Positions 1-23,292 of a stretch of 64,000 nucleotides of DNA are shown here, one piece after another. The notes beneath the pieces are model-generated. The model was not told the origin of the DNA. It made no database searches and worked only from the letters and a program-made list of their open reading frames with translations. The DNA comes from a virus, in the IMG/VR virus record IMGVR_UViG_3300050030_000022, positions 1 to 64,000 of that record; one strand, given 5' to 3'. The first letter of the stretch is position 1. Each line of letters begins with the position of its first letter. The translations under genes and the position numbers were made by a program.

Positions 1-1227
1 GACCCATGTGCCCTTGAACTTGGCAGTGGATGGCGTCTTCCGACCTCAACTGAATGGGCTAATGTGGATGCAAGTGGAAACTGGACGAACTGGAATGGCC
101 CGTGGAACTCTGCGTTAAAAATGCATCCAGCGGGGCGCTTGATATACAGTACTGGCACACTTGATTCAAGGGGTATAATAGGCGTTTACTGGAGCAATAC
201 TATGACCGGTACAAGTACAGCCTGGAAGTTGGACTTTGGGGCTGCTAATTGTGAAGTATTATCCTGGAATAAGGCATATGGTTCTTCTATCCGTTGTATT
301 AAGGATTCAACACAAACAGGACAGACGTCAACCATCCCTACTATCACTACAACCACCATTTCCAATATCAATCAAACCACGGCAACGGGAGGGGGTAATG
401 TTACCGATGATGGTGGTGCCACCTTGATCACGATGGGGGTCTGTTGGAATACATCTGCCACGCCCACTACTGCGAATGGTCACACCACTCAGGATGCGGA
501 GGAAGGGGTATTTACTTCTGACATCACCGGGCTTACCGAAGGAACCTTGTATTATGTGAGAGCATATGCCACTAATAGTGTCGGGACAGCTTATGGTAAT
601 CAACAAAGTTTTACAACTCTGGACTTGTCTTGTCCTGGAGAACCGACCGTTACATACGGAGGACAGATCTATCATACAGTACAAATAGGCACCCAGTGTT
701 GGTTCAAGGAAAACTTGAATATAGGAACACCTATCGATGTATCACAGGAGCAAACGAACAATGGTACGATTGAAAAATATTGTTATGATAACTTGGTTTC
801 AAATTGTAATGTATACGGTGGGCTTTACCAGTGGAATGAGGTAATGCAATATGTGACGAATGAAGGCGCTCCTGGAATATGTCCTGATGGCTGGCATATA
901 CCGACAGATGCAGAGTGGACTACATTGACAACTTATCTTGGCGGGGAAATTATTGCAGGAGGCAAGATGAAAGAGGCGGGATTGACCCATTGGGCATCAC
1001 CAAATGCTGGTGCTACAAACAGTAGTGGATTCACAGCTCTTCCGGGCGGCTTTCGAGGAGGCAATGGCTGGTTCGGCAATCTTTCCCAAACCGCAGGCCT
1101 CTGGTCGTCATCGCAGTCCGGTGGGGTCAACTCATGGTTCCGGAATCTCTATTGGTATTATGAGTACGTCTACACTAGTGACGGCGACAAGTCTGACGGT
1201 TTGTCTGTACGCTGTGTTCAGGATTAA
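1..1227 (+). CDS. 5'-truncated FN3-like + FISUMP (Fib_succ_major-type, C-lectin-like fold) surface protein; host-like
   Basis: Frame is open from base 1 (DPCALELGSGWRLPT...). Motifs YYVRAYATN, YHTVQIGTQCW..ENLN, YGGLYQW, GICPDGWHIPT, C-terminal GLSVRCVQD. Confidence 0.85.
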   Translation, partial: DPCALELGSGWRLPTSTEWANVDASGNWTNWNGPWNSALKMHPAGRLIYSTGTLDSRGIIGVYWSNTMTGTSTAWKLDFGAANCEVLSWNKAYGSSIRCIKDSTQTGQTSTIPTITTTTISNINQTTATGGGNVTDDGGATLITMGVCWNTSATPTTANGHTTQDAEEGVFTSDITGLTEGTLYYVRAYATNSVGTAYGNQQSFTTLDLSCPGEPTVTYGGQIYHTVQIGTQCWFKENLNIGTPIDVSQEQTNNGTIEKYCYDNLVSNCNVYGGLYQWNEVMQYVTNEGAPGICPDGWHIPTDAEWTTLTTYLGGEIIAGGKMKEAGLTHWASPNAGATNSSGFTALPGGFRGGNGWFGNLSQTAGLWSSSQSGGVNSWFRNLYWYYEYVYTSDGDKSDGLSVRCVQD

Positions 1228-1274: not shown

Positions 1275-2885
1275 ATGAAACCAATCAAAATATTTCTGTT
1301 GCTTTGTCTTCTGCTTGTGGTTTCCACGTGCAAGAAGGACCCGGAAACACCATCTGGCAGCAACAAAATAGAATTTGGTGACTCTTCAATTGATTCAATA
1401 TTTTATTTTAATGCCCAAGTCAGCACAAACCTCACCAACACAGGAGGAAAACAAATTTTACAGCATGGACATTGTTGGAGTAAGGAACCACAACCAGAAA
1501 TCAAAGATCATCATTCTTCTTTAGGTAGTCTAATAACCCCTGAAAATTTCACGAGCCAGATCGACAACCTCGATCCAAATGTGAAATACTATTTTCGACC
1601 TTATGTAACGTTACAAAACGATACAATTTACGGCAAACAGGAAGGGTTTACAACATTAAAGACAGGAAAACCAAAACTAACAACAAGTGAAGTTGCTAAT
1701 ATTACAACAATATCAGCGGTATCTGGAGGGACGGTATTGAGTGACAGCGGTTATACTGTTACCATAAGAGGCGTATGCTGGGATACAGTCCATGATTTCA
1801 ATGTTAATATTTGTTTAGGGAAAACATCTGACGGAGCTGGTTCGGGAGCCTTTTCCAGTAACCTTGAAAATCTTAAAGAGGGAAAACATTATTATGTCAA
1901 AGGTTATGCAATAAACCAAGCTGGAACGAATTATGGTGAAATTAAACAATTTTCAACAGTTCCTATAACGCTGCCAACCATCGAGACAAATGCTGTTACC
2001 AGCATTACTGGTAATTCAGCAGTTTGTGGTGGAAATATCACCAGTAGTGGTAATGGTACTGTGACTGTGACCGCCAGGGGTGTTTGCTGGAATACAACAG
2101 GTAATCCCACTCTTGATGATAATTTGGGTTATACTACAAATGGAACCGATATAGGAGCCTTTGTTAGCTATTGTTCAGGACTTACACCAGGAACACCATA
2201 TTATGTCAGGGCTTATGCTACCAATAGCGAGGGAACAGCTTACGGCAGTCAGGTCACATTCATGACCGATTCTATTACTGAATCATCATTTGTCTGTGGC
2301 GATGCGATTATCGTGCAACATACCGCAGGTAGTATCTCGCCCGTTACAAAAGAAGTGGTTTATCAAACTTTAAAAAACATTCCCGGAGATACTTCTAAAT
2401 GTTGGATTGATCGCAATTTAGGCGCGGATAGAGTGGCATTGAATAAAAACGATGCCTCAGAACCTTCCGCCGGGTGGTATTGGCAATTTAACAGAAAACA
2501 AGGCTATCAGCATTCAGGTACGGCTCGCACACCCTCAACTTGGGTAACGACCACGCAGACATCCTCCGATTGGACGACCGCCAATGATCCCTGCACCTTG
2601 ATCGGTGACGGGTGGAGATTACCCACCTCTACTGAGTGGACTGCCGTTGATGCCGGGTGGACTTCGCTGAGTAACGTGTGGAGTTCCCGCCTGAAACTCC
2701 ATGCCGCCGGGTATTTATATTACACCACGGGAGCATTGAACAACCGGGGGGCTTACGGCTGTTATTGGTCGTCTACTCAATACAACACTGCCAAAGGGTA
2801 TAACCTGTACTTTTACTCCGCAAGTAGCGTAGTTGCGAATTACGATAAGAATTTTGGGTTTACCATAAGATGTATACATAATTAA
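1275..2885 (+). CDS. Lipoprotein with three FN3-like repeats and a C-terminal FISUMP-like domain
   Basis: Lipobox-like leader (LLVVSTC-KKD). Repeats YYFRPY/YYVKGY/YYVRAY. GWRLPTSTEW, YWSST, GFTIRC; this domain is paralogous to the start of the preceding ORF. Confidence 0.8.
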   Translation: MKPIKIFLLLCLLLVVSTCKKDPETPSGSNKIEFGDSSIDSIFYFNAQVSTNLTNTGGKQILQHGHCWSKEPQPEIKDHHSSLGSLITPENFTSQIDNLDPNVKYYFRPYVTLQNDTIYGKQEGFTTLKTGKPKLTTSEVANITTISAVSGGTVLSDSGYTVTIRGVCWDTVHDFNVNICLGKTSDGAGSGAFSSNLENLKEGKHYYVKGYAINQAGTNYGEIKQFSTVPITLPTIETNAVTSITGNSAVCGGNITSSGNGTVTVTARGVCWNTTGNPTLDDNLGYTTNGTDIGAFVSYCSGLTPGTPYYVRAYATNSEGTAYGSQVTFMTDSITESSFVCGDAIIVQHTAGSISPVTKEVVYQTLKNIPGDTSKCWIDRNLGADRVALNKNDASEPSAGWYWQFNRKQGYQHSGTARTPSTWVTTTQTSSDWTTANDPCTLIGDGWRLPTSTEWTAVDAGWTSLSNVWSSRLKLHAAGYLYYTTGALNNRGAYGCYWSSTQYNTAKGYNLYFYSASSVVANYDKNFGFTIRCIHN

Positions 2886-3591: not shown

Positions 3592-4320
3592 ATGAACATT
3601 GACATCTACACCTCACTTGCCTTAAATTCCTCACCATACGCTGAGAGATTGCGTAAGAACCTGGAACAATTAAAGTCCGGCAAACACAAAATCAGGTATT
3701 GGGCAATGACGGCACAGTTGGTTTCTGAGCAAAGAGATGCCCCAAGGGGTTGGGCAAGGATTATCATTGACACGGAAAAAATAGAACCGACAGGTGTATT
3801 AAAGCCCTCCGTGAACCACGCCAAACTGCTCAATCAGATTATTAACCACATCCCGGAAGACTCTAACATCGTCATTATTGCCGACTGCGATATGTTCGTC
3901 TTTCCTTATGGTTGGGGCGATTTTCTTGCAAGGAAACTTTTTGACACGATCTTAACGCCCCTGGACTGCATCGGCACGGAAAAGCATGACGGCTCACTCA
4001 GGATGTTCTTCACCGCTTTTGTCACATTCAAATACCGACTTCTCGACCCTGACTTCATGCCGGGCATTGATGAAAAGTACGAAAGCGTGTGGACGACCAA
4101 TAACCGTGGCAATAAAGTGGTTGCCGACACGGGTTGGCGACTGGAAGATCAGGTCAGGGAATGCGGTTTAAAGTACGACAAATTTAAGTTGATCGGCGAT
4201 CAATATTTATACAAAGGACATTTGTTCTGCGCCCATTTGGGCGGGTCACATAAAAAGGACTTCAAAAGCAAGGAAGTCAAGCATTGGTATCGGGTTAATA
4301 AAACTTTAATTTATAGATAA
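3592..4320 (+). CDS. Putative GT-A-fold glycosyltransferase-like protein
   Basis: SVNHAKLLN...IVIIADCDMF (DxD after a hydrophobic strand), DTGW, C-terminal HLGGS. Confidence 0.5.
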   Translation: MNIDIYTSLALNSSPYAERLRKNLEQLKSGKHKIRYWAMTAQLVSEQRDAPRGWARIIIDTEKIEPTGVLKPSVNHAKLLNQIINHIPEDSNIVIIADCDMFVFPYGWGDFLARKLFDTILTPLDCIGTEKHDGSLRMFFTAFVTFKYRLLDPDFMPGIDEKYESVWTTNNRGNKVVADTGWRLEDQVRECGLKYDKFKLIGDQYLYKGHLFCAHLGGSHKKDFKSKEVKHWYRVNKTLIYR

Positions 4321-5069
4321 TGAAACTCTACGCCCTTTTCCTAATCCTATTCTTAACGATTGTCCCGCAGTCACTTCCCAAACGCACTTACATAGACGGG
4401 TATACACAGACCGACCGTTTTGTACTGGTTAAGATTGACCCAAAGGAATCCCATCTGGCGATGTACTATAAGAATAAGTACGGTGAGGTTTTGGGCGATT
4501 TTTACAGGCTGAGCCAATATGTCAAACATCAGGGCAGGCAGTTGGTCTTTGCTTGCAACGGGGGGATGTTCATGGAGGATTTACGACCTTTAGGACTGTA
4601 TATCGAGAACGGCGTACAGATCATGCCACTTAATACCCGAAGTGCCTCCACGAACTTCTACATCAAACCGAATGGGGTATTTTACATTTGCAGTAATGGC
4701 AAGGCGGGGATTTGTAAAACAGAAGAATATAAATTGATTTCCGGTATGTACACTGTCGGTGAAGATATTAAGTATGCAACTCAATCGGGCGGGATGCTGA
4801 CCATTAACGGGGAAATTAATCCTAAGTTTGACCCCAATTCCCTGTCGTGGAAATATCGTAACGGTGTAGGTATTCAGGATGACGGGAAGGTAGTCTTTAT
4901 TTTAAGCAAAGAGCCGGTGAGTTTCTATTGTCTTGCCGCAATGTTTCAGGCTTGCCAGTGTAACAACTCCCTGTTTTTAGACGGGGATATTTCGGACTTT
5001 TATTGCCCGGAGATCGGGTATACACAGATGTTTGGGTATATGAGTGTGATGATTGCGGTAACCAACTAA
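4320..5069 (+). CDS. Exported phosphodiester glycosidase family protein (NAGPA/DUF2233-like)
   Basis: Hydrophobic N-terminus; FACNGGMF, PLGLYIENG, NFYIKPNGVF, YATQSG, RNGVG, LFLDG. Confidence 0.8.
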   Translation: MKLYALFLILFLTIVPQSLPKRTYIDGYTQTDRFVLVKIDPKESHLAMYYKNKYGEVLGDFYRLSQYVKHQGRQLVFACNGGMFMEDLRPLGLYIENGVQIMPLNTRSASTNFYIKPNGVFYICSNGKAGICKTEEYKLISGMYTVGEDIKYATQSGGMLTINGEINPKFDPNSLSWKYRNGVGIQDDGKVVFILSKEPVSFYCLAAMFQACQCNNSLFLDGDISDFYCPEIGYTQMFGYMSVMIAVTN

Positions 5070-5264
5070 ATCATAAAGCCATGAAAACAAATTATGACCA
5101 CACACAGTTAGCATTAAATTTCAGACGACCTCCACGTGCAGAACGCCCGGTAGACCGGATATTAAAAAACTTCCGCAAGTTGCAACGCACTGAATACTTC
5201 CGGAAAATACATTACTTGCGCCGTGATAAATTTATTTCGATGTTTGGCACTCAGATATTTTAAC

Positions 5265-5293
5265 AAAGCCGCCTGATTACTCAGAACGGCTTT
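5265..5293. terminator. Hairpin between convergent operons, probable bidirectional terminator
   Basis: AAAGCCG..CTGA-TTAC-TCAG..CGGCTTT. Confidence 0.55.
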
Positions 5294-5342
5294 GGGCAAC
5301 GGCGAGCCAGCCCACTCAAGGCTAAATGTATGTTGATTGCGC

Positions 5343-5888
5343 TTATAAGCTGGAATTAATCACAGGCTTACGCAAATCAAACAGTCTTTTGCTCTCCATT
5401 TCAATTCTCAATGAGTTGTATTTTGCCAGTTCAATCCCGGCTTCATTTGTGAGGCCGTGAAGTTCCCACCAATCAGCGAGCGTCAGATAGGTAAGCATAT
5501 CCTTTATCCCGTCATCCACGGTTTGAATCGAGTTTTCATTGTAGGCATCGTTATCCTGGATTGAGAAAGCGTACTGATTGGTCAGGTCGCTGTTCGAAGT
5601 ATCCCCGAAATCCACATAACTGTCCAGTATCAAAGCACCCGTTACGGAGAAGGTCATTTTCTTGACCATAACGAATACCTTAGTCGCGGCACGTTTCATA
5701 AATATATCGAATGCGTCCCGTTCCCCGGCGGTCATACCGTATTTGTCAATCGCATCGGAGTCGCCCTGTTCTCCCTTACCAATCATTGCTTTGGATTTAT
5801 AAAGAGTTAGGGATGAAACCCTGCTGAACAAATCTGCCGATGGGTAGTGAAAAACAATCGTGCCGTTGGTGGTGTCTTTGGTGTACAT
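5343..5888 (-). CDS. Putative tail adaptor/ring protein (paralogue 2)
   Basis: Likely start MYTKD at 5888, which avoids overlap with the upstream gene. IKDMLTYLTLADWW matches the neighbour's IQDTIISYVVWRWM. Lies in the structural operon. Confidence 0.5.
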   Translation of the reverse strand: MYTKDTTNGTIVFHYPSADLFSRVSSLTLYKSKAMIGKGEQGDSDAIDKYGMTAGERDAFDIFMKRAATKVFVMVKKMTFSVTGALILDSYVDFGDTSNSDLTNQYAFSIQDNDAYNENSIQTVDDGIKDMLTYLTLADWWELHGLTNEAGIELAKYNSLRIEMESKRLFDLRKPVINSSL

Positions 5889-5898
5889 ATCTGTAAGA

Positions 5899-6411
5899 TT
5901 AAAAAGTTCTGTATTTCGTTTTGGGGCGTGACCCGTAAGTAAATGCCCAGTCAACTCCCGCGAGATTATCAATGAAAGAGGCGTTCTCAGCTTGTGTACC
6001 TTGTTCCTGCCCCAAGCCCTTAGTCAGCATCCAACGCCACACCACGTAAGAGATAATCGTATCTTGTATGGCATTGGTCAGCATGGCACTGTTGCGCCCG
6101 GTAATCCACTTGTCAGGTTCGTCCAAGATGTAAACCAGTTGATTGGGGTAGTCCTCCAGATTCCCGGTTACGTCAAAATTTAAAACAAACGGTTCAATCA
6201 CACTTGAATCCTCGGTGGCATACTTAGCCAGTTTTACCCATATCTTATTAGCGACATCCTTTAAAAAGACGTTGAACATATCCCGGCTCTCGTTATTCAA
6301 TGGTACAATGTCTGATTTGACAGGGTTTTGGTCTATCGTCTGAGATAGATAAACCGTGCGTTGCCACACCAGAAGAAAAATATTGTCCAGTGAAAAAGAA
6401 ATCGTGATCAT
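5899..6411 (-). CDS. Putative tail adaptor/ring protein (paralogue 1)
   Basis: 170 aa in the structural operon; similar layout to the downstream ORF. Confidence 0.5.
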   Translation of the reverse strand: MITISFSLDNIFLLVWQRTVYLSQTIDQNPVKSDIVPLNNESRDMFNVFLKDVANKIWVKLAKYATEDSSVIEPFVLNFDVTGNLEDYPNQLVYILDEPDKWITGRNSAMLTNAIQDTIISYVVWRWMLTKGLGQEQGTQAENASFIDNLAGVDWAFTYGSRPKTKYRTF

Positions 6412-7025
6412 TATTTCAGTCTTAAAATCAGTCCGCCCTTATAAATCAACTTATCAAAGTCAGTTCCAATTCCTGCGGAAAGCCCCCAACCCTCCCGGCG
6501 GATATACATTAACGATACGTCCGCGGAGTTGAATTGCTTGCCCCAGAATCCGGCTCCAATATTAGTATAAAGATGTGACTTTTCACACCTAACATTGGTT
6601 TGATATTGCGTTAAATCTACCGTTTTTTCCTTTGTGATTATGAGTGATTTTATCAAACTCGGTGGATTTATGGTCATGGAGTTTAACACACCTGTTACGT
6701 TGGCAGTCCAATGGAGTTCAAACTGAGGATGAATGTAAGTCCCTGTGTATTCGGATTGTTCTATCGGGCAGTCCAGCCATTCGGTTGTCCTGATATTTAC
6801 CGTATCAATAACCTTGTGGGTAAACGGTAGATAAATCACCTGCTTTAATGTGTCCCTTCTTACAACGGTGTCAGACTTAACGGGTGCATGTACGCAATCG
6901 TATAGTTGTTGCTGTAACGAGGCAATTTGTTTTTCATCCTCCCGGCGGTCACATTTATAGAACAGAAATTGGAACAGGATAATCCCCGCCAGTGCCACAC
7001 AGAAATATAGAGGTGCTTTGTTCAT
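6411..7025 (-). CDS. Spanin-like envelope protein
   Basis: N-terminal TM helix, short coiled coil, DTV/DTL-rich linker and amphipathic C-terminal beta strands; close to the lysis genes. Confidence 0.5.
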   Translation of the reverse strand: MNKAPLYFCVALAGIILFQFLFYKCDRREDEKQIASLQQQLYDCVHAPVKSDTVVRRDTLKQVIYLPFTHKVIDTVNIRTTEWLDCPIEQSEYTGTYIHPQFELHWTANVTGVLNSMTINPPSLIKSLIITKEKTVDLTQYQTNVRCEKSHLYTNIGAGFWGKQFNSADVSLMYIRREGWGLSAGIGTDFDKLIYKGGLILRLK

Positions 7026-7059
7026 TTAAGGTATTGTTATTACCATTATATCTTTTATT

Positions 7060-8403
7060 TTAAGGTGTATCGCATTCCAGTTCAACCACCTCAAAGACCC
7101 CAAAACCTGATATATATGTCATAATCAAATCTCCGTCTTTATTGGTCGTTATGGTACGGTTATATGTTTGATATAAATCTGTTTCATTAATCAGGGAGCA
7201 CCCTACTACGCCGTCTAAGACGGTTAATTTAATAAGATTATCTCCAAATGCAAATGCGCTACAGCTACTCCCGTACGTCATGGTGCTACAGCTACTCCCG
7301 TACGTCATGCCGTTACAGCTACTCCCGTACGTTATAAAAAAACAAAAGGGGTCTAACTTTATTGCATAACAATTCTCTCGAAAAACAATATTGTTCAACC
7401 GTGAAAAAACACCCATATTTTCAGGATCATCCAATGTGCTAATAATCCCTATATCAATATCGTGACAACCTGTTCCAAAGGTGTAGACATCAGAAAAAGA
7501 AGTGACGTCAATGGAAACGGCTACGTTAAAAGCAGTGCTGTCAGTTATCCAAGATAGCAGCGAATCACCTGACACATCTAAGAGATATTGCCAGTAACGG
7601 GTAGAATCAGCAGGGAGTTTATCCGTAGAATCCCCTACAATGCACTTATAAATGACTCCCGAAGACTTACATATTTCATCAACAGAATAAACCGTAGCGG
7701 CGTTATAATCAGGTGCATCACATTCCCACCTTCTGAATTTGACATTTCTAAAATCATATCCCGTTGACAGGTTTTTAATCAAATCTTTTCTAAAGGTAAT
7801 CACTCCCTTAAATCCTGCGACAATAGCGATGGAATCAGCCGAAAAAGAAACATCAGCCAGCCAGTTATCAGGGTTCCAATCGTATTTTATTTCATCCTGT
7901 GGAAATAGTGGCGAATAAACCTGTGAATCTATTGTACTGTCAGAAGTTGCAAGCAGGATCAAAGGTTCTAATGTCCCGGTATTGATAGCCGTGTCTATCG
8001 TTGTTGAACCATCAGTAAAATAATGAACGGTCTGAAAGTCTGTAATCCGATACCAACCGCCAGCAGTTAGTGTTTTGGCACCTATTGCGGTTACTAATGC
8101 AGTATAAATAACATCGGTTATGGTCGCAGCATCTCCTGCCGGGAAATCGGCCCGAATAGCCGAGGCGGTATCATTCACCAAATTCTTTGTTGCATAATTT
8201 GCACTGTCACCAAGCCAGATAGGGTCAGTTTCGCTACCCGTTCCCGAAGAGGGCTTACGGATGTAATCATAAGTTCCCGTGTAGGTGTTAAGTATCATTT
8301 GCAGGGAATCCTTGACATCCCTGAATTTAACCTTTTCCACAGCCTGCCCCCTGATGCCAAAAGCCAGACCCATCAAAGCCAGTACAATAATTAACTTTTT
8401 CAT
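7060..8403 (-). CDS. Tail-fibre-like protein with Sec signal peptide
   Basis: MKKLIIVLALMGLAFGIRG|Q leader. YRITDF...KGVI..RKD..N..YDFRNVKF and TYGSSC repeats resemble Bacteroidota phage fibre proteins. Confidence 0.6.
   Translation of the reverse strand: MKKLIIVLALMGLAFGIRGQAVEKVKFRDVKDSLQMILNTYTGTYDYIRKPSSGTGSETDPIWLGDSANYATKNLVNDTASAIRADFPAGDAATITDVIYTALVTAIGAKTLTAGGWYRITDFQTVHYFTDGSTTIDTAINTGTLEPLILLATSDSTIDSQVYSPLFPQDEIKYDWNPDNWLADVSFSADSIAIVAGFKGVITFRKDLIKNLSTGYDFRNVKFRRWECDAPDYNAATVYSVDEICKSSGVIYKCIVGDSTDKLPADSTRYWQYLLDVSGDSLLSWITDSTAFNVAVSIDVTSFSDVYTFGTGCHDIDIGIISTLDDPENMGVFSRLNNIVFRENCYAIKLDPFCFFITYGSSCNGMTYGSSCSTMTYGSSCSAFAFGDNLIKLTVLDGVVGCSLINETDLYQTYNRTITTNKDGDLIMTYISGFGVFEVVELECDTP
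7261..7335. repeat. 27-bp tandem repeat, about 3 copies (encodes xTYGSSCxx)
   Basis: acagctactcccgtacgt at 7261, 7288 and 7315. Confidence 0.9.
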
Positions 8404-8405
8404 GG

Positions 8406-8633
8406 TTACGTTGTTTTGGTTTCCTTAATTTCAGCGTACTTCTGAATGGCTTTTGGTACGAATGCAGCCACGACAAATAAGGTCACAATGGCGATCACGT
8501 TTGCGTCCAACTGCTTAGTGCCTATGGCGAAACCGGATATTGCTGCGGAGATCAGAAGGGCGATAAAACTTTGCAGCCTCATGGAAGACTTCACGCCTTC
8601 CGCTTCGTAAAAAAATCCTACTTTTGCTTTCAT
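8406..8633 (-). CDS. Holin (two TM helices)
   Basis: 75 aa with SSMRL followed by two hydrophobic helices and a charged tail; next to the endolysin. Confidence 0.65.
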   Translation of the reverse strand: MKAKVGFFYEAEGVKSSMRLQSFIALLISAAISGFAIGTKQLDANVIAIVTLFVVAAFVPKAIQKYAEIKETKTT

Positions 8634-8644
8634 ATATGTAAATA

Positions 8645-9079
8645 TTATGTTTCAATAAGTTCATAATGTGGGCGGTCAACAAGGGATTGGCCTAATAAAA
8701 TTGTGCCGTCATCATTCCAATTTCCGCCCCAACGTATCTTATGGGTGATTTTACCTTGCTCAAAGAGCATATCCGCTACCCCATGAATTAAGCCCGCAAG
8801 ATAACTCAGCGTTTCCTTGTCATAGGAAATGGCATTATTCACCCATGCGTAAATATCTGCTGCCTTTGAGGGCGTGTAATTATGCTTACCGAGTGTTGTT
8901 ATGCCGTCAATTTTGCTTTTGCCTTCTTTAAAGTATTGCTGCTGAAGTTCAACCGAGCGATGACCCTCAGCGATGCCGAAGTCCACATTGGAAATCCTGA
9001 CCGCAGTGTGCATTATTAACTGCAAATCCACATGGCATGTCGCCAACCTTTCCTCTCCGACTTTACTGAAATTTCCCAT
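8645..9079 (-). CDS. Endolysin, M15-family (L-Ala-D-Glu) peptidase
   Basis: EGHRS..Q, KHN...AADI, IRWGGNW, DRPHYEL. Confidence 0.85.
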   Translation of the reverse strand: MGNFSKVGEERLATCHVDLQLIMHTAVRISNVDFGIAEGHRSVELQQQYFKEGKSKIDGITTLGKHNYTPSKAADIYAWVNNAISYDKETLSYLAGLIHGVADMLFEQGKITHKIRWGGNWNDDGTILLGQSLVDRPHYELIET

Positions 9080-9363
9080 TATTTAGTCATTCCTCTTGTG
9101 TCCAATTTTGCGATTTCCCTTAAAATATCTTTGTTGTACGCCGATACGTCCGGGTCAGACCACATAACTCCGGCCATAAACTTAATTTCATTATCATATT
9201 TTGCACATTCCTTCTGCATATCCTGATCGACCTGGTCTAAGGCGTTTATCCGGTCATTGCCCTGTTTAATCAGCCAACCGACACCCCCGGCAATCCAAGT
9301 GAGTAAAACAAAAATAATCGTGACAAGACCGTTGCTGATTTTTTGTTTTGCACTTTCCGTCAT
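9079..9363 (-). CDS. Single-TM coiled-coil protein (holin/antiholin-like)
   Basis: One TM helix then a coiled coil; translationally coupled to the endolysin. Confidence 0.45.
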   Translation of the reverse strand: MTESAKQKISNGLVTIIFVLLTWIAGGVGWLIKQGNDRINALDQVDQDMQKECAKYDNEIKFMAGVMWSDPDVSAYNKDILREIAKLDTRGMTK

Positions 9364-9369
9364 GGTATT

Positions 9370-9621
9370 TTAAGATTTGCGCGTTGAGTAATTCAAATCT
9401 ATGGCACGGTCAGCCCATGCCTGTTTAAAATTAAACGGATCGCTCTCAGCCCATTCTTCCAAGTTGGTGTCCAGTGATACCCTTTTGATGCTGCATTGAG
9501 TTAGCAGTCCCGCACCGGAGTTGGGGGCTTCATAGCCATAGTAAGTATAAGCGGAATCGTCAGCATCTATCACGGTAGGGGTTAATGTCACCCATCGGTT
9601 GACTTTCAGTTCGTTTGCCAT
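9370..9621 (-). CDS. Small putative virion protein
   Basis: 83 aa in the structural operon; YTYYG..A...W.DR..LNY pattern. Confidence 0.45.
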   Translation of the reverse strand: MANELKVNRWVTLTPTVIDADDSAYTYYGYEAPNSGAGLLTQCSIKRVSLDTNLEEWAESDPFNFKQAWADRAIDLNYSTRKS

Positions 9622-9624
9622 TGA

Positions 9625-9870
9625 TTAAAGTTTTAATGTGTTGTCAGAGATGAATTTTTGAACCTGGGCATTGCAGAATTGAGACGCTTGCGTACTTCCC
9701 ACTACCTGTAAGATGTCGGCGGCGGCTTGCCATGCCAATACATCTACTAAACTTTCCGGGAAATCCTCACCCGCTTCAACTTTAGCCACATATAAAGCAT
9801 GGTCAATGGTGTGCGAATCCTCTACCGAGAAGTATTCTAAGGCTTTAATATATGCGGGTGCTTGTGCCAT
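9625..9870 (-). CDS. Head-tail adaptor, C-terminal half (separate ORF)
   Basis: ATG overlaps the upstream stop (TAATG at 9872-9868); LEYFS...LVDVLAWQAAADIL helical end. Confidence 0.5.
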   Translation of the reverse strand: MAQAPAYIKALEYFSVEDSHTIDHALYVAKVEAGEDFPESLVDVLAWQAAADILQVVGSTQASQFCNAQVQKFISDNTLKL

Positions 9871-10484
9871 TATTGTGCGGGTTGGAAGATTGCTGAATTT
9901 ACTTGCCATGTTGTTTGGTCTGAATAAACCCAATAGGTATTGCCTGTGCCAGAAGTGTCGCGGATCAGGAAATTATCGGCAGGCGTATAATTAGTAGCGT
10001 CACCTATGAGTTGGGTAATCTCCGCATTAGTTGGTATATCAGGATAATTACCCGTATAATATCCTGGAGTTAGAAAGCCTTGCCCATCCCCAGATGAATA
10101 GGAAGAATTGTAATACCCTATCACACAAACGGGTTTAGACGGTTTTCCCCGTGTTATGGTGTTCTTTTGCAGGTTGTAAAGGGGATGTTCCTGAGAGATG
10201 GGATGACTTATAGGGCGATCCCATTCAGTCATTTTAAAAGATGACAGTCGTAGGAAGTCAGACGGTAAAGCCACGATACCCGATCCATCCGACCGAGCAT
10301 CTTGGCTCTCAGTAGAAAAATCAGTAGGCGGAATCAGATGCAGGGGTACGGCCATTAAAATCTTCTCAGCCGCAGAGTCTAAAAACGAATCAATCAGGTT
10401 CACCGAGTCCACCTGATAGGCGGTAAACTGCGAAACCTCATCCAGTTTTTGCCTGACAATCTCCGTTATTTCCGCCCGTGTCAT
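9870..10484 (-). CDS. Head-tail adaptor, N-terminal half plus extra domain
   Basis: G.VALPSDFLRL..F.M..W.R and RGKPSKPV motifs; two genes downstream of the MCP. Confidence 0.6.
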   Translation of the reverse strand: MTRAEITEIVRQKLDEVSQFTAYQVDSVNLIDSFLDSAAEKILMAVPLHLIPPTDFSTESQDARSDGSGIVALPSDFLRLSSFKMTEWDRPISHPISQEHPLYNLQKNTITRGKPSKPVCVIGYYNSSYSSGDGQGFLTPGYYTGNYPDIPTNAEITQLIGDATNYTPADNFLIRDTSGTGNTYWVYSDQTTWQVNSAIFQPAQ

Positions 10485-10485
10485 T

Positions 10486-11079
10486 TTATTTGCTTGCTAC
10501 AAATGTTTCCCATTGGGTGAATTGCACCCCTCTTGATTTGGCCTCAGAGATGATCTGTTCATTCTTCTGCACCTGCCGGAAGGTTATGTCTTTAAAGTGT
10601 TCCATCAGGTAATTACGAGCCTGCTGGCCATTAACAACTGAATCACCTACGATGTGTGATACGGGTTCGGTTGTGATTTCCTCCAGGATTTCCTCTACGA
10701 TGTCTGTGGGTAAATCCTCGTCCGTTTCTTCCGGTATGCTCATATCCGGTGGCGTGGCTGTGCCTAAGTCGTCATGATCGGGAGCCTGCGGATGCTTGCC
10801 CGTTAGCACTTTATCGTCATCCACATTGTCCGCTTCAGGCGGATATGTTTTCTTTTCCGCAGGCAGGGGTATGGTGGAGATCAGGCGGTATTTTTTGTTG
10901 TAACCCCCAGAGTTTTCGATCCATTCCTGAATCTTGGGGTTGTTGGTGGTAAATTTGCCCTGGATTTGCCTGGGTGCAGATGTGCCGTTAATAAAAGCGA
11001 CAGGTATGTCCCTTCCTTCGATATTAGCCGTGAGATACCTGTTTAAAATTCCGATTGTTTCGTAAGTCTTGAGTGGCAT
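10486..11079 (-). CDS. Phage hypothetical protein following MCP
   Basis: 197 aa; two small domains joined by an acidic/Pro-rich linker. Confidence 0.6.
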   Translation of the reverse strand: MPLKTYETIGILNRYLTANIEGRDIPVAFINGTSAPRQIQGKFTTNNPKIQEWIENSGGYNKKYRLISTIPLPAEKKTYPPEADNVDDDKVLTGKHPQAPDHDDLGTATPPDMSIPEETDEDLPTDIVEEILEEITTEPVSHIVGDSVVNGQQARNYLMEHFKDITFRQVQKNEQIISEAKSRGVQFTQWETFVASK

Positions 11080-11127
11080 AATAAATGATTTTTGTGAAAA
11101 GTAGTTATAAGTTGTGAAAAATGCTTA

Positions 11128-11160
11128 TATAACCCGGAAGGTTTGAATTTCCGGGTTATA
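11128..11160 (-). terminator. Hairpin downstream of MCP
   Basis: TATAACCCGGAA-N9-TTCCGGGTTATA, a perfect 12-bp stem. Confidence 0.7.
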
Positions 11161-11179
11161 GTTTGCATTTATAGTTTGG

Positions 11180-12541
11180 TTAGCTGCCTGAACCGGCAGA
11201 TGGTTCGATAATAAAATGGGTGGCCGGGTAACGAGTTGCGATGCAGAAGGTTTCATCAATCTTGTACGCATCTGCGTTTTTCTGTCCCGATCCCTTGAGG
11301 TCGATTTTGGTTGAGGCCATTGATTTAAAGACGTGGCGTTCGATGTTGTTCACATCCAGTACCATTCCTTTTGCAGCCCAACCGACATCGTTAAATAAGT
11401 TGTGGTGCTTCACGGCCAGAGTTCCAAAACTGGTCTCGATCATGTTGAATTTGATACCGAATTTGACCTCTGTTCCTTTGGCCTCAATCTGTTTGACAAC
11501 CGAAGATACTGACATCATATCCGTCATCAGGTCTTTCCCGGCGAACAGAACTCTGGTGTCTGAACCTGAATTGCCCGTAAAGACATCCCTTGCCCACTCG
11601 TTAAATCTTTTCTCGGTCATTGCACCGGATGTGTATTCCAAAGCGTTATCGGCATAACGATAGATACCACCTGAGAAGTATTTCCAGTCTTCACCTTCGG
11701 GGTCGTATTTATAACCCCTTGCTCCAAACAGGGAGGTCAGTTCAAATGACCTACGCATATCGTACAAAGCCTGTAAACGATAGTCGGTGATGTCCCAGTT
11801 GACCTCTTTGTTATGCAAGGCCAGGTATGCACCTTCCTCCACCTGCGCCATGTGAATTTGGCAAAAATTGTAGGTTTTCGAGGGGAAGGTCGTGTACGGT
11901 GTGGTCTGAGCGTCATTTTCGTTCTTGGCGTTACCGATACGAATGATGGTCGTGGTCTGTGGGATGTCAGGCACTAAGTCCTCATCGACACCCAAACCGT
12001 TGACCGCAATTACGGAGATCGTTTTCGGCCCGGTATTTTTAGCCACGATATGCAACACCAATTCTTTACCGTCACCTCCGTCAATACCCTGTACCAGTAC
12101 ATTGTCGTCAACGGCGAAGATATGAATGTCGGTTACGGTGATGGTGTTTATATCACCAGTGGAATCAACTGTACCCGAAGCGGAAGTATCAAATGATACA
12201 GCTACGGTAGTGGAGATACCCCTTACATCGGATGAGTACCATTCTGTTTTCCATGCACCTACATCAACGGTGAGTCCGATGTTTCGCAGAATGGTGTCCA
12301 AAGGGGTTGCCGCCGGTTTCATTTCCGTTATTTTCTTGGAAATTTCGGTCAGCAATAGTTCGCTTGATGCGGCTGCGGCAACTGCCGTGTCCGGTGTGGC
12401 CTGTGAGACCGCACCTGCGCCTGCGGCAAATGCCAGGGTTACACCCGCTCCTAAGAGAGCAGGAAGAAAAGCAAAGGCTGCGGCCGATACTAAAATCACC
12501 ACCACAGTCAATACTGCCATGAATATGTCACGTGTTTTCAT
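11180..12541 (-). CDS. Major capsid protein with hydrophobic N-terminal leader
   Basis: 453 aa, after a scaffold-like gene and followed by a hairpin. KITEMKPAATPLD, YNFCQI, MRRSFELTSLFG, FSGGI, IETSFGTL resemble the SU10/DUF5309-like HK97-fold MCP group. Confidence 0.8.
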   Translation of the reverse strand: MKTRDIFMAVLTVVVILVSAAAFAFLPALLGAGVTLAFAAGAGAVSQATPDTAVAAAASSELLLTEISKKITEMKPAATPLDTILRNIGLTVDVGAWKTEWYSSDVRGISTTVAVSFDTSASGTVDSTGDINTITVTDIHIFAVDDNVLVQGIDGGDGKELVLHIVAKNTGPKTISVIAVNGLGVDEDLVPDIPQTTTIIRIGNAKNENDAQTTPYTTFPSKTYNFCQIHMAQVEEGAYLALHNKEVNWDITDYRLQALYDMRRSFELTSLFGARGYKYDPEGEDWKYFSGGIYRYADNALEYTSGAMTEKRFNEWARDVFTGNSGSDTRVLFAGKDLMTDMMSVSSVVKQIEAKGTEVKFGIKFNMIETSFGTLAVKHHNLFNDVGWAAKGMVLDVNNIERHVFKSMASTKIDLKGSGQKNADAYKIDETFCIATRYPATHFIIEPSAGSGS

Positions 12542-12559
12542 TTTCGTTTTGGTTTATGT

Positions 12560-13555
12560 TTATTTAAAGCGTTCGTGTTGTCTGTTATAGCCGTCCACCA
12601 AATTGGTGATCATTCTTGTACCCTCATCTGCTTTCGGGACGGGCTTTGTTTCTCCTCCCTTAGATAAATCGGGTAGACCATCCCCTGTTGGTGTGGCTTT
12701 TGTTACTTTTTCTTTTATGGCTTCGTTGCGTCCTTTTACTTCGGCCACTTTGGAAGCCTGTTGAATTTGAGAGTCTGCCGTCCGTGCCCGGTGCAGGGCG
12801 TTTAAAAATCCCTTATCCACTTTACCATTGTATACATCAGCCAGGATTTGATCGGCGTATTTTGCAAATTCCTCCAACCCAGCCTGATCCAACTTGTTTT
12901 CCTCGGCAAACTCCCGGAGGTTCTGAGCGGCGATCTTGCGGTTCTCGGCGTAACTTTCCGTCCATTTCTGGCGGTCGGTAAATTGCTGCTCCCTCTGTTT
13001 TTTCTGTTCTGCCCACTTTTCGTTTTTAGGGATATAGTCATCGGCTAAAACGACCTCCCTTAATACCTTTCTCTGCTCTGCGTCAAGGTTCAAAGCAAGG
13101 GCTTCGGTGAAGTCCGCCCCCTCGTCCATGTCCTGTAACGCACCTACCAGTTCGGGATGGGCGTTAAACAGGGTCATTACCTTTTGATTGGCCTCCCGGT
13201 TCTTTTGTTGATAAGTTTCCAGGTCTTTGATGTGCCGGTAGGCTTTGCGGTCTGCCTTATCATCATCGTCCAACCCATCGTCTTTGTACTTTTCCCGGAT
13301 GTAATCTTTGACCGGACGGTAATCATCATCCCCCACGACTTCTTTAGTTTCGTGGTTCATCGTATCTGTTCCAGCTTTGTCAAAGGACTGTTGGATGGAT
13401 TCACCACCCTCACCGGCGGGCTGTCCGCCACCTTGTGCTCCCTCAGTTTTACCCTCAGTTACTCCCTCGGTCTGCGCCGGGGCTTGTTGACTTTGTGTTG
13501 ATTCACCTTGACTCCCCGCGTTGCCTGCGGATTGTCCTGCTGCTGATTCGCTCAT
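12560..13555 (-). CDS. Capsid scaffold protein
   Basis: Low-complexity acidic N-terminus and coiled coils; directly upstream of the MCP. Confidence 0.7.
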   Translation of the reverse strand: MSESAAGQSAGNAGSQGESTQSQQAPAQTEGVTEGKTEGAQGGGQPAGEGGESIQQSFDKAGTDTMNHETKEVVGDDDYRPVKDYIREKYKDDGLDDDDKADRKAYRHIKDLETYQQKNREANQKVMTLFNAHPELVGALQDMDEGADFTEALALNLDAEQRKVLREVVLADDYIPKNEKWAEQKKQREQQFTDRQKWTESYAENRKIAAQNLREFAEENKLDQAGLEEFAKYADQILADVYNGKVDKGFLNALHRARTADSQIQQASKVAEVKGRNEAIKEKVTKATPTGDGLPDLSKGGETKPVPKADEGTRMITNLVDGYNRQHERFK

Positions 13556-17649: not shown

Positions 17650-18768
17650 ATGATTTGCAAAAGATGTTTATATTCTGACGACATACTTGGTGTGACTTTA
17701 AACGCCGAATCCGTCTGCAACTTTTGTCAACTCCACGACCGCCTTGAAAAGCAATATCCTATTTCGTGGGCTGACCTAAGTACAACCTTTGAACGGGTAA
17801 AGTCCCGTGGCAAAGGTCACAAGTACGACTGCCTGGTGGGTATCTCCGGTGGGATTGATTCTACCTTTATGCTACATTTATGCAAGGTTCACCAGGTAAG
17901 GGTATTGCCGTTCCACATGGACAACGGTTTCAACACCGAGCAGGCTGAACACAACATGCGAGCCATTTGCGAGTATACTGGCTATAAAATGGAACGCTTT
18001 ATTGTCCCGTCTGAAAAATGGCGCAAGGTTAATGTCGCTGTTTTAATGGCCGGAGTGAGTGACGCAGACATCCCCAATGATATTGCGATGGCAAAACTGA
18101 TGTTGGACACCGCACACGCCCAGGATTGCCCTATTATTTTAAACGGTCACTCATTCCGCAACGAAGGCTCAGTGCCGATTGGTTGGACTTACATGGACGG
18201 TGCTTACCTGAAAGATATGTACCGCCGTTACTGGCATGAGGAATTAACCGGCTTTCCTATTCTGACGGTATGGGATCAGATCAAAGCATCCCTGAGAGGA
18301 ATCAAACATGAACGCCCGTTGTATCATTTGGGGCTGACCAAAGAGGAGCAAATTATAATACTGGAGGGTGTCATTGATTTTAAGCGGTATCAGGGCAGGC
18401 ATTGCGAGAACGATTACACCGCTTTCGCCGGGTGGCTCACATACCAACGGTTCGGGATTGACAAGCGCATCATCGACCTTTCGGCTCAAATCAGGTCGGG
18501 TCGTATCAGCAAGTGGGATGCGCAGGTCGTGTTAAAAAGTAGCCCCGGAAGACTTGCCCAACACACAATAGATCGGGTAACACATTTTCTATCCGTGGAT
18601 GAACTCATGGTTATCCCGTTTGTAACCGGGATTCGCAAGATGTTTTACGAGTTCCACACCTATCAAAAGACGTTCCGGCGTTACAGGTGGTTGGTGAAAA
18701 TCGGGGTTGTTTTGCGATTCCTTCCTGAAACCTTCTTAAAAAAGTATTGTCAGAAACTTAAATATTAA
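17650..18768 (+). CDS. N-acetyl-sugar amidotransferase (WbuX/WbpG-like, PP-loop)
   Basis: CKRC..VCNFC, KYDCLVGISGGIDST, HMDNGFN, GHSFRNEG, RFGIDKR..LSAQIRSG. Confidence 0.85.
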   Translation: MICKRCLYSDDILGVTLNAESVCNFCQLHDRLEKQYPISWADLSTTFERVKSRGKGHKYDCLVGISGGIDSTFMLHLCKVHQVRVLPFHMDNGFNTEQAEHNMRAICEYTGYKMERFIVPSEKWRKVNVAVLMAGVSDADIPNDIAMAKLMLDTAHAQDCPIILNGHSFRNEGSVPIGWTYMDGAYLKDMYRRYWHEELTGFPILTVWDQIKASLRGIKHERPLYHLGLTKEEQIIILEGVIDFKRYQGRHCENDYTAFAGWLTYQRFGIDKRIIDLSAQIRSGRISKWDAQVVLKSSPGRLAQHTIDRVTHFLSVDELMVIPFVTGIRKMFYEFHTYQKTFRRYRWLVKIGVVLRFLPETFLKKYCQKLKY

Positions 18769-18772
18769 AGAT

Positions 18773-19060
18773 ATGATAATGCAAAAATCATCCGTAAGGC
18801 GTACACTCAGAACCATCCGGCGTGAATATAGTCAGGAAATATCCAACATCGAAAAGTTAATCAAGGACGCGATCAAAGAAGGCAAAGACCATATTGAGTA
18901 TACCACCCCTGATTTTCTTACCAAAAAGAACTATACGCATGGCGGTGAATATCAAGATTACGGAGTTATCGCCAAAATCAAGTATTATTTTTATAAGCAT
19001 GATTATACGGTGAATAATCAAAGTGGTTATAACGATTTTCGCATTGTAATATCGTGGTAA
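18773..19060 (+). CDS. Phage hypothetical protein
   Basis: 95 aa ending IVISW; similar layout to 21572-21787. Confidence 0.5.
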   Translation: MIMQKSSVRRTLRTIRREYSQEISNIEKLIKDAIKEGKDHIEYTTPDFLTKKNYTHGGEYQDYGVIAKIKYYFYKHDYTVNNQSGYNDFRIVISW

Positions 19061-19061
19061 A

Positions 19062-19796
19062 ATGACCAAAACCATTGCCATAATACCGATTAAGGGCAGG
19101 GAAACCCTCGCCTACCACACAATCAAACGATTGGTCAATGATAATATCCGTACCGTTTGTGTGGGTCACACGATGGCTGAGAAGTGTGTGGTGGAATGCG
19201 CCGGTGGGGACTTTATTAAAGTGAAAGACCGCATAACTTTGGGCGCAAAATGGCAACTTGCTTTAGATAAAGCCCGTGAACTTTCTCCCGACCAAATACT
19301 TTACATGGGCAGTAGTGATTTCGTTTCCCATAACTGGGTAAAAGTCATCCAGCAAGACCTTGATAATGGTTACGCCATGACGGGGACTAAAGGTATTTAC
19401 TTTCTGGACATCCAACCCCAAAATAAAAAGAGGATGATCTGGTGGGAAGGTTATCTGAAAGACCGCAGTGATGAACCTATCGGAACGGGGAGGTTGTTTT
19501 CGGCTAAGATGCTGGACTTGATGAATTGGAGATTATTTGATACAACACAGGATCACTCGATTGATTTCTACCAACTGCAATCACTACGGGCATATACTGA
19601 GATGTGGCCGAAGGATAAACTGATTTGCTACAATGATTCCAAAGAGATCGCCAGTTTGTCCATTTCGACTTATCGTTGGGAAAACAAACATAACTTTGCC
19701 GGTGAATCCAAATACCCGACCGCAAAGATAATGCAGTCCCCGGATAATGTTCTGAATAAGTATTTTAAGGAAGTAATAAATTTGTTCAATGAATGA
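19062..19796 (+). CDS. Glycosyltransferase family 2-like protein
   Basis: IAIIPIKGR, LGAKWQ, ILYMGSSDF, PIGTGR. Confidence 0.65.
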   Translation: MTKTIAIIPIKGRETLAYHTIKRLVNDNIRTVCVGHTMAEKCVVECAGGDFIKVKDRITLGAKWQLALDKARELSPDQILYMGSSDFVSHNWVKVIQQDLDNGYAMTGTKGIYFLDIQPQNKKRMIWWEGYLKDRSDEPIGTGRLFSAKMLDLMNWRLFDTTQDHSIDFYQLQSLRAYTEMWPKDKLICYNDSKEIASLSISTYRWENKHNFAGESKYPTAKIMQSPDNVLNKYFKEVINLFNE

Positions 19797-20793
19797 AATA
19801 ACCCGTGAGGCGCACGAAAAATACATTGCCACTCATCCGCCGTACATAACAATCTATCCTACCGATCATTGTTCGCATCACTGTTGGTATTGCTGTTCGC
19901 ATGAAGGCAACCGTAATCCGGTGAAATCGGTAATTGATGAAATGGGATGGCATAGTTTTATAAATAGGATTTTAAAACTTAGCAATGGTATTCCGTGCGA
20001 ATATCGTATATCGGGAGGGGAGCCACTGGAACACCCGGCAACCTTATTAATTATAGAAAGATTATTGGAAAATGGGCATACGGTTTGTTTGGGTACAAAT
20101 GGCGTGCATATTGAACATTTACAAAGATTGCAGGGTAAAATTAAATTTGAAACCTCTTTTCATTTAGGGCAATACCTGAAAGAACCTACCCGTGGCCGTG
20201 CGGATGATTGGATTGACGTGTACCTTCCTCAGATGTTAAACCACGCCTCAGGCATAGGAATAGTTATTCCCATGACCTTAGATGTTTTATACCATCCCGA
20301 CACCGAGAGTTATCTCGACCGGATTGAGGAGAAACTAAAGCCGTACAATTTCCCCTCCCATGCGTTTTCGTTCACCGAACTGTACGGTAATTTCAACGGG
20401 CGGACAATGCCACGGGATTACACTGAGGCTGACAGAAACCGTATTGTCGAGTTAATCCACAAATATTTAGACCCGGAATACAAAAGGACGATTGATGAAC
20501 TGAGTACAATTAACAAATCCCTGAAATTAAAGGGGGTTCCCTGTTATTATATGAGCCGTATGCTTCAGATCAACTCCATTGGAGATGTGATCGTATGCGG
20601 GGCGGGACTACCTGATAAGAAAATGGGCAACATTAAAAGCGACACATTAAACGTAAAGATCACTGATGAACCCCAACCGTGTGAATTTGAATCCTGCGGC
20701 TGTCCCCCGATGGCTTATTCAGCTTGCCTCGAACCGCATGGTATGACGTTTGAAGATTATAACAAAATAGGCAATGAGAATCCTGGTAATTGA
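19789..20793 (+). CDS. Radical SAM protein with C-terminal Cys cluster (SPASM/Twitch-like)
   Basis: CSHHCWYC (CxxxCxxC), ISGGEP, TNG; C-terminal C..INSIGDVIVC..PC...CGC. Confidence 0.85.
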   Translation: MNEITREAHEKYIATHPPYITIYPTDHCSHHCWYCCSHEGNRNPVKSVIDEMGWHSFINRILKLSNGIPCEYRISGGEPLEHPATLLIIERLLENGHTVCLGTNGVHIEHLQRLQGKIKFETSFHLGQYLKEPTRGRADDWIDVYLPQMLNHASGIGIVIPMTLDVLYHPDTESYLDRIEEKLKPYNFPSHAFSFTELYGNFNGRTMPRDYTEADRNRIVELIHKYLDPEYKRTIDELSTINKSLKLKGVPCYYMSRMLQINSIGDVIVCGAGLPDKKMGNIKSDTLNVKITDEPQPCEFESCGCPPMAYSACLEPHGMTFEDYNKIGNENPGN

Positions 20794-21565: not shown

Positions 21566-21571
21566 AATATT

Positions 21572-21787: not shown

Positions 21788-21788
21788 A

Positions 21789-23022: not shown

Positions 23023-23045
23023 CATTAAACTTTCAATCATAGATT

Positions 23046-23261: not shown

Positions 23262-23292
23262 TTTTAAAATAATATAGATTAAACTTACGATT

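Follow-up and report, generated by a model that had tools for sequence, protein, structure and literature searches.

A predicted exported relative of phage tail fibres enriched in Bacteroidota-type O-glycosylation sequons

Introduction

T5 Llp and Cor of lambdoid phages are small exported lipoproteins that block receptors and are encoded by genes adjoining those for receptor-binding proteins, and some virion proteins of mycobacteriophages acquire glycans in the cytoplasm from glycosyltransferases that the phages encode. Here we describe P0001, the product of a gene in a 64,000-nucleotide stretch of viral DNA (positions 1 to 64,000 of IMG/VR record IMGVR_UViG_3300050030_000022, hereinafter the window), which belongs to a tail-fibre-like family and combines a predicted secretion leader of the Bacteroidota type with an excess of the motif recognized by the general O-glycosylation system of that phylum. 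The resemblance of P0001 to Llp and Cor would lie in export and in a proposed action on a receptor at the envelope; P0001 differs from them in lacking a lipobox Cys, in its length of 447 amino acids (aa), and in being itself a homologue of a receptor-binding module. With the mycobacteriophage proteins it would share the combination of a structural-type phage protein with glycans; in contrast to their route, the one predicted for P0001 runs through Sec export and then the sequon-directed system of the host periplasm.

The host O-glycosylation system and the Q-rule, by which the residue after the leader is Gln, are both already known. A Gln after the cleavage site is a Bacteroidetes-specific feature of the substrates of signal peptidase I (SPI) (PMC5837995). 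Leaders exposing an N-terminal Gln, as in P0001, have likewise been described for Porphyromonas gingivalis phages in genes of unknown function, where they were read as an adaptation to the secretion system of the host (Matrishin et al. 2023, PMC10367356); in the text of that study used for comparison, the string “glycosyl” does not occur and these genes are not described as fibre homologues. As for O-glycosylation, the available part of a review gives a sequon that requires Asp, does not admit Glu in Bacteroides fragilis, and favours a hydrophobic residue at +1 (PMC12871550). It also relates that glycosylation extends to engineered sequons and to foreign proteins from Bacteroidota, and that the system works across species; therefore, an exported foreign protein with sequons should be a substrate. 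The substrates described there, including heavily glycosylated surface proteins such as the S-layer proteins of Tannerella, are similar to P0001 in their extracytoplasmic targeting (predicted for P0001) and in carrying the sequon in soluble regions, but P0001 differs in being phage-encoded, in belonging to a tail-fibre family, and in its density of 22.4 sequons per 1000 aa. The word “phage” is absent from that review. Our literature searches, outside of which lay most subscription journals and supplements, found no report of phage fibre-type proteins being exported or serving as substrates of Bacteroidota O-glycosylation.

Phage fibres and spikes with a CBM5/12-like module offer a structural comparison, namely the baseplate/fibre protein of Pa193 (9b45), the fibres of Agrobacterium phage 7-7-1 (9rkv), and the tailspikes of cyanophage Pam1 (7eea) and phiAB6 (5js4). 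A module in the P0001 model resembles these with Z-scores of 5.5–7.0 and is likewise set in a β-rich fibre body. P0001 differs from them in having a secretion leader rather than a virion anchor, in its lysis-cassette position, and in a core domain that has no solved counterpart.

A Q-rule leader and a sequon excess in P0001

An earlier sequence-only reading had reported, for a 447-aa open reading frame (ORF) starting with ATG, a leader followed by Gln and ten motifs of the form D-[ST]-[AILVMT], the definition of the sequon scored here. The leader (MKKLIIVLALMGLAFGIRG, then Q20) is present as reported and is of the n-h-c type, with a core that lacks charged residues, reaches a hydropathy of 3.17 over 10 residues, and leads into IRG|Q20. 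Residues 1–25 contain no Cys and hence no lipobox. In all 12 leader-bearing homologues considered below, Gln directly follows the small residue that ends the hydrophobic core. We checked whether the true start might lie downstream of the leader, and the evidence speaks against this: the ATG is tightly coupled to the upstream gene, lying 2 nt past its TAA stop, with the next in-frame Met codons at residues 11 and 36, and the two closest homologues (46–50% identity) retain the leader.

The ten sequons are the very set that had been listed (Table 1), as compared to a mean of 3.4 (sd 1.7) in 20,000 shuffles of the mature protein (P(≥10) = 0.001), and none lies after residue 290. The strings previously quoted from the body of the protein, YRITDF, KGVI, YDFRNVKF and three TYGSSC repeats, are also all found in the translation. 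A possible preference of the sequons for loops (8/10 in coil or disordered segments of the structural model, versus 58% coil overall) was set aside as too weak to count as evidence.

The window has 64 sequons in the 20,523 aa of its 78 non-nested ORFs (3.1 per 1000 aa), with two large outliers, P0001 and an 858-aa protein encoded at a distance on the opposite strand (16.3 per 1000 aa; Table 1). Both bear a leader and together they account for 24 of the 64 motifs; without them the window falls to about 2 per 1000 aa. The 858-aa protein has 14 sequons versus 3.8 expected, a count that none of 5000 shuffles reached, and its homology to P0001 is limited to a 14-aa linker motif. The second independent case proposed in the sequence-only reading is real.

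Co-variation of leader and sequon density

The P0001 family is very large, with 1478 representatives at E ≤ 1e-3, 127 at E ≤ 1e-30 and 102 matches in a further search, and is spread over many phage types. We compared 218 of its members, namely 12 leader-bearing and 206 leaderless proteins. The leader-bearing proteins contain 118 sequons in 7,949 aa (14.8 per 1000 aa, 2.79 times the expectation from composition), as against 471 in 112,845 aa (4.2 per 1000 aa, 0.96 times the expectation) in the leaderless ones (Mann–Whitney p = 7e-8). Thus, the signal peptide co-varies with sequon density among homologues as had been predicted, and the alternative that leaderless homologues have an equal D-S/T density does not hold.

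This contrast is specific to the canonical sequon, with control tripeptides remaining flat between the two groups. The observed-to-expected ratios, leader-bearing versus leaderless, are 0.61 versus 0.82 for E[ST]X, 1.30 versus 1.34 for the reversed motif, 0.75 versus 0.73 for D[ST] followed by any other residue, 1.54 versus 1.28 for D[AILVMT][ST], 0.80 versus 0.89 for [ST]DX, and 0.91 versus 0.87 for N-x-S/T. The family contrast matches the Bacteroidota sequon, as far as the consulted part of its description goes, in involving Asp and not Glu and a hydrophobic +1 residue (PMC12871550). At alignment columns 137 and 155, a sequon is present in 6/12 and 5/12 leader-bearing members, respectively, versus 2/205 leaderless members at either column. 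In P0172 and P0215, which are long and distantly related members, 16 and 25 motifs lie beyond the shared core in regions that are not homologous, and the nearest leaderless relatives of the P0001 clade (P0014, P0006 and P0017) have 2.1–4.7 motifs per 1000 aa. A possible part played by disulfides was dropped, the Cys content being alike in leader-bearing and leaderless proteins (1.32% versus 1.45%, p = 0.86).

Low densities are also seen in leaderless homologues from metagenome-assembled genomes (MAGs) of Bacteroidota (n = 4; 1.5–5.2 per 1000 aa) and in leaderless spike or fibre proteins of a cultured Flavobacterium phage (n = 3; 0–3.8 per 1000 aa). At 13 loci with at least one complete ORF bearing a leader and Gln, the 20 ORFs of this kind reach 2.37 times the expectation, as compared to 1.06 times for 67 leaderless ORFs, some of these loci having been chosen via the linker motif, which itself contains one sequon. 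Among genome contigs, a partial family member with leader and Gln (L094; 9.7 motifs per 1000 aa) is encoded on a contig of 3 kb binned to a Cellvibrionaceae MAG; either this contig belongs to a phage and was mis-binned, or Q-type leaders also occur beyond Bacteroidota.

A linker motif common to P0001 and the 858-aa protein, and further proteins that carry it

The linker motif of P0001 corresponds to residues 723–736 of the 858-aa protein, the two proteins being otherwise unrelated. Its DNA pattern occurs in the window at 8141..8172 and 57356..57387 and nowhere else, with 0 occurrences expected, and among the family members it is found in 3/12 leader-bearing and 0/206 leaderless proteins. At residues ~40–140 of the family member P0012, the motif recurs five times as a tandem repeat of 21 aa, and every repeat contains additional triplets of the sequon type; a comparison of P0012 with viral contigs returned no locus.

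Scanning IMG/VR with the linker pattern yielded 14 loci, two of which (L101 and L109) are near-duplicates. Ten of the 14 pass our leader rule, two (L098 and L105) fail it despite a clear leader, and two (L104 and L106) have none. The proteins carry 7.4–41.4 sequons per 1000 aa and, in the manner of fibres, exchange their N-terminal and C-terminal modules. The highest density that we saw is that of L107, with 35 sequons in 845 aa (41 per 1000 aa). At L097 and L100, a sequon-rich protein of 772 or 1013 aa with leader and Gln (phrog_356, minor tail) follows genes for a tape measure, a structural protein and a Tal-like protein; at L100 two more leader-bearing genes lie downstream, of which one encodes a 417-aa protein matching tail-fibre PHROGs at E 2e-21. 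On neither of these contigs, both of which are fragments, was a leaderless fibre gene seen. In a tblastn search against cultured phages, the L097 protein matched only a Synechococcus phage fibre. Searches of viral and genome contigs with a 12-row alignment of the P0001 family further recovered L085, which follows a capsid gene and another leader-bearing gene, and L052, which follows a gene for a giant protein. Judged by sequence, the linker motif marks a wider class of predicted exported, sequon-rich, fibre-like viral proteins, some of which are in tail-module positions.

Domain architecture of P0001

The AlphaFold2 model of P0001, which includes the leader helix, has a mean predicted local distance difference test score (pLDDT) of 80. 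In the model, residues 1–89 comprise the leader, one helix and a low-confidence linker, with no folded virion-anchor domain; the leaderless relatives begin with varied N-termini of the fibre type. The family-defining β domain that follows reaches a pLDDT of 90.8 when modelled alone, and returned no fold match from PDB libraries (best VIA Z 3.0, best Foldseek E 0.41). A prediction of the complex of three copies of this domain scored 0.01. The small domain next to it is modelled as closely similar to the chitin-binding domain of Serratia marcescens ChiB (VIA Z 8.6, root-mean-square deviation 0.9 Å over 47 residues). The Pfam model CBM_5_12 (PF02839) matches 3/12 leader-bearing relatives and does not match P0001 at E ≤ 0.01. 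The C-terminal region is similar to left-handed β-helix acyltransferases at Z ~7, a likeness at the level of the fold only.

With the whole model, Foldseek found nothing in the PDB at E ≤ 0.001, the structure searches detected no catalytic fold, and the Protein Atlas gave weak leads only (best feature score 0.75, TM ≤ 0.37). At the sequence level, P0001 has no Pfam match, none of the 12 leader-bearing members has an NCBIfam match, and the only PHROG recovered for P0001 is phrog_6278 (E 0.002). No sorting domain of the type IX system (the C-terminal domain, CTD) was found in the 12 leader-bearing members with Pfam or NCBIfam. A tblastn search linked P0001 weakly to the tail fibre of Clostridium phage phiCT453A (26% identity, E 7e-4). 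The earlier suggestion that P0001 resembles fibre proteins of Bacteroidota phages is correct only in part: the family occurs in many phage types, and its ties to annotated tail fibres are weak.

Genomic context

The window comprises the initial 64 kb of a virus record of 73,181 bases whose completeness is estimated at ~80%, and its genes include those for an SU10-type major capsid protein (PF17236, E 5e-29), an endolysin, a P22-like portal and a 3350-aa ORF. A megablast search with positions 5000..13000 against cultured phages gave no match. P0001, the sole copy of its family in the 73-kb record, is encoded in a lysis cassette, alongside genes for the endolysin, the holin-like protein and a membrane-anchored protein, outside the tail module (Table 1). 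The position between a holin and a spanin-like gene, given in the sequence-only reading, fits; both functional labels are drawn from topology, neither the 75-aa nor the 204-aa protein having a match in Pfam or PHROGs.

Table 1. Positions of P0001, its parts, its neighbours and the second sequon-rich protein in the window
Feature	Positions	Strand	Basis
P0001, whole ORF; predicted exported fibre-family protein	7060..8403	-	447 aa, ATG start
Predicted signal peptide, residues 1–19 (MKK, hydrophobic core, IRG), then Gln20 at predicted +1	8347..8403	-	hydropathy rule
Residues 20–89: helix 27–41, then low-confidence linker; sequons DSL32, DSA66, DTA78	8137..8346	-	pLDDT <50 for residues 41–84
14-aa sequon-bearing linker motif, residues 76–89, common to the 55184..57760 protein	8137..8178	-	11/14 identical
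Family-defining conserved β domain, residues 90–228; sequons DTA137, DST155, DSI190	7720..8136	-	alignment and model
CBM5/12-like small domain, residues 229–278; sequons DST258, DST266	7570..7719	-	VIA on model
C-terminal β-helix-like region, residues 279–447, with 9-residue TYGSSC-type repeats; sequons DSL280, DST288	7063..7569	-	model
Upstream neighbour, 75 aa, holin-like	8406..8633	-	two hydrophobic segments
Endolysin, 144 aa, without hydrophobic segment	8645..9079	-	phrog_465, E 4.6e-31
Downstream neighbour, 204 aa, N-terminal membrane anchor	6411..7025	-	one N-terminal hydrophobic segment
Second case, 858-aa spike/fibre-like protein, leader ...SVFA|Q	55184..57760	+	phrog_4636 tail spike, E 1.2e-27; tblastn to annotated tail fibres and spikes

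The host phylum is inferred from sequence to be Bacteroidota, from the Q-rule leaders and from relatives in MAGs of that phylum: Gln stands at the likely +1 position in 7/8 non-lipoprotein leaders of the record (N-termini read by eye), and Bacteroidota MAGs hold 4/7 of the relatives of P0001 in genome contigs.

Several further features of the record were observed. The 204-aa membrane-anchored neighbour has 3 sequons versus 0.57 expected (p = 0.015), which fits a periplasmic C-terminal domain. A glycan-related gene cluster on the plus strand at 17650..26510 encodes a radical SAM protein (19789..20793), a GT47-like protein (21738..22334), a polysaccharide pyruvyl transferase (22286..23017) and a methyltransferase (25923..26510), and a leader-bearing NAGPA phosphodiester glycosidase is encoded at 4320..5069 on the same strand; from these, the phage may remodel surface glycans of its host. 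Leader-bearing proteins are unusually numerous for a phage record (57762..58967, 59051..59935, 42568..43302 and 1275..2885 in the window, and 68421..69338 and 70063..71052 in record coordinates), most of them with Gln after the leader. One leader-bearing protein of the record is a lipoprotein with Fn3 and Fib_succ_major-like parts, and a Fib_succ_major protein is encoded at 64..1227. Cargo that is host-like, or else flanking DNA, may make up the ends of the record.

The SU10-type major capsid ORF (11180..12541, minus strand) begins with ~45 strongly hydrophobic residues in two segments (hydropathy 2.77 and 1.69); its Pfam match starts at residue 65 and its first ATG lies 18 nt past the upstream gene. 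Capsid proteins with N-termini resembling signal peptides are mentioned for P. gingivalis phages in the text consulted of Matrishin et al. (PMC10367356). The 3350-aa ORF adjoining the portal gene (30245..40297, minus strand) is depleted in sequons (2 observed versus 8.9 expected, lower-tail p = 0.005), which could reflect avoidance in a protein that crosses the periplasm on ejection, or chance.

Discussion

The analysis shows the leader, the sequon excess, its specificity and its co-variation with the leader, both among homologues and in unrelated phage proteins, and the domain make-up of P0001. We posit that P0001 is probably a Sec-exported receptor-binding-type glycoprotein that is O-glycosylated by the host and acts at the envelope, off the virion. 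Its combination of a host-style leader with an excess of the host O-glycosylation motif makes export, and the addition of sugars by the host, probable. Under this proposal, a member of a very large family of distal, receptor-binding-type tail-fibre parts would have had its usual N-terminal virion-attachment part replaced by a Q-rule leader of the Bacteroidota Sec/SPI type. The gene would be read late, with the endolysin and holin-like genes; Sec would export the protein, which would be cut before Gln20, and the glutaminyl cyclase of the host would convert this residue to pyroglutamate, in line with what the consulted parts of the literature on the Q-rule and Gln cyclisation describe (PMC5837995, PMC10653852). 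The general O-glycosylation system would then add glycans, in the periplasm, to Ser or Thr at up to ten D-S/T-(A/I/L/V/M/T) sites. The mature product would be a heavily glycosylated protein of carbohydrate-binding type, comprising a novel β domain, a CBM5/12-like module and a β-helix, and its action is predicted to be extracytoplasmic, either within the periplasm or at the envelope, at cell debris or on vesicles. There it might serve as an off-virion copy of the receptor-binding module that binds envelope glycans around lysis and thereby masks receptors or excludes related phages. Export, cleavage, glycosylation, location and role are thus all predictions from sequence.

A number of points weigh against this proposal. 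Leaders were called throughout with an in-house hydropathy rule, and the assignment of the host to Bacteroidota is indirect. A FastTree phylogeny of the core domain implies 8 changes of leader state, only 2 contrasts being on supported branches, so that phylogenetic independence is suggested and not proven, and an independent-contrast test on two supported pairs cannot reach significance. Enrichment is weak in some leader-bearing proteins (P0082 at 4.1 per 1000 aa, and the metagenomic L085 and L086 at 5.3 and 6.6), and eight leaderless members reach 10–16 per 1000 aa. An apparent avoidance of the sequon at a buried conserved DT[ILV] in column 207 (1/12 versus 114/205, Fisher p = 0.002) was dropped as confounded by ancestry, because the nearest leaderless relatives also carry DTK or DTR. 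Seven proteins of the window bear leaders, and 4 of the 6 besides P0001 are not enriched, having 0 (4320..5069 and 42568..43302) or 1 (57762..58967 and 59051..59935) motif; the lipoprotein at 1275..2885 has 4 versus 2.1 expected. Further, in 400 kb of a Cytophagaceae MAG, a baseline built on crude ORF calls from one genome that may not be that of the host, 42 ORFs with leader and Gln and 145 cytoplasmic ORFs both stand at 1.24 times the expectation. Hence, the motif excess is not a general mark of export in that MAG and, since its ORFs with leader and Gln show no excess over the cytoplasmic ones, the phage proteins appear hyper-enriched, beyond being merely exported-like; the density of P0001 lies above that of 41 of these 42 ORFs, with one reaching it. 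Lastly, the receptor-masking role is an inference only, P0001 is far larger than the known exclusion proteins, and the tail-module slots of leader-bearing relatives on other contigs fit a virion role better.

Because relatives occupy such tail-module positions, the main rival explanation is that P0001 is a true virion fibre taking a periplasmic route, i.e., that it is exported, capped with pyroglutamate and O-glycosylated, and joins particles assembled in the cytoplasm only once the holin has breached the inner membrane or after lysis, its glycan coat protecting or disguising the fibre. We hold this to be unlikely. The genes with leader and Gln at L097 and L100 do follow tape-measure, structural and Tal-like genes with no leaderless fibre beside them, but these contigs are fragmentary and leaderless fibre genes may lie off-contig. 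The 417-aa leader-bearing protein of L100 with its tail-fibre PHROG match, the L085 family member placed after a capsid gene, and the shuffling of N- and C-terminal modules typical of fibres all favour a virion role, as does the sole occurrence of the family in the record, and co-location with lysis genes would time P0001 to lysis. Against this, P0001 stands in the lysis cassette and not in the tail module, has just a helix and a disordered linker where a folded N-terminal anchor would be, and the fibres of the cultured Flavobacterium phage are leaderless. The literature searched likewise holds no report of a fibre matured in the periplasm for tailed phages, and we know of no precedent for a virion fibre made by this route. 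A broader version, in our judgement similarly doubtful, is that a class of Bacteroidota phages routes its fibres via Sec, that the periplasmic machinery of the host caps them with pyroglutamate and coats them with its O-glycan, and that they are mounted on particles only when the inner membrane is opened by the holin or after lysis. The fibres of this kind would include both P0001 and the 858-aa protein, and their shared sequon-bearing linker D-T-A-x-A-I-R-x-D-F-P would be a dedicated glycosylation module.

Two other explanations appear far less probable. If P0001 were a conventional cytoplasmic tail fibre, its leader would be unused, owing to a downstream start or as a structural segment, and its motif excess would reflect chance or fold preference. 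The tail-fibre-like nature of the family agrees with this, a p of 0.001 among 78 ORFs is by itself not overwhelming, and some leaderless members have 10–16 motifs per 1000 aa. Yet the start codon lies 2 nt past the upstream stop, relatives at 46–50% identity keep the leader, 206 leaderless proteins of the same fold average 0.96 times the expectation, the control tripeptides are flat, and unrelated leader-bearing proteins show the same signature; we thus give this explanation very little weight. Equally hard to credit is a lysis accessory factor whose target would be the outer membrane or the polysaccharide of the envelope and which would belong to the endolysin/holin/membrane-anchored cassette. 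Tight operon packing between the holin-like and 204-aa genes, carbohydrate-binding-type domains predicted to be exported, and the sequon enrichment of the 204-aa neighbour would suit such a factor, but P0001 has no similarity to any lysis family in Pfam, PHROG or NCBIfam, its homologues elsewhere are in structural modules, and no catalytic fold was detected in it.

If our proposal of an exported and host-glycosylated P0001 is true, phage-encoded relatives of receptor-binding proteins would be substrates of the general O-glycosylation system of Bacteroidota, which would join two fields that are separate in the literature searched. The Q-rule leader, the sequon excess and the linker motif provide sequence marks by which this class can be found in viromes. 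In Bacteroidota of the gut, the mouth and the environment, a glycan coat derived from the host would then be one of the factors that could influence how phage and host recognize each other, resistance to proteases and visibility to the immune system.

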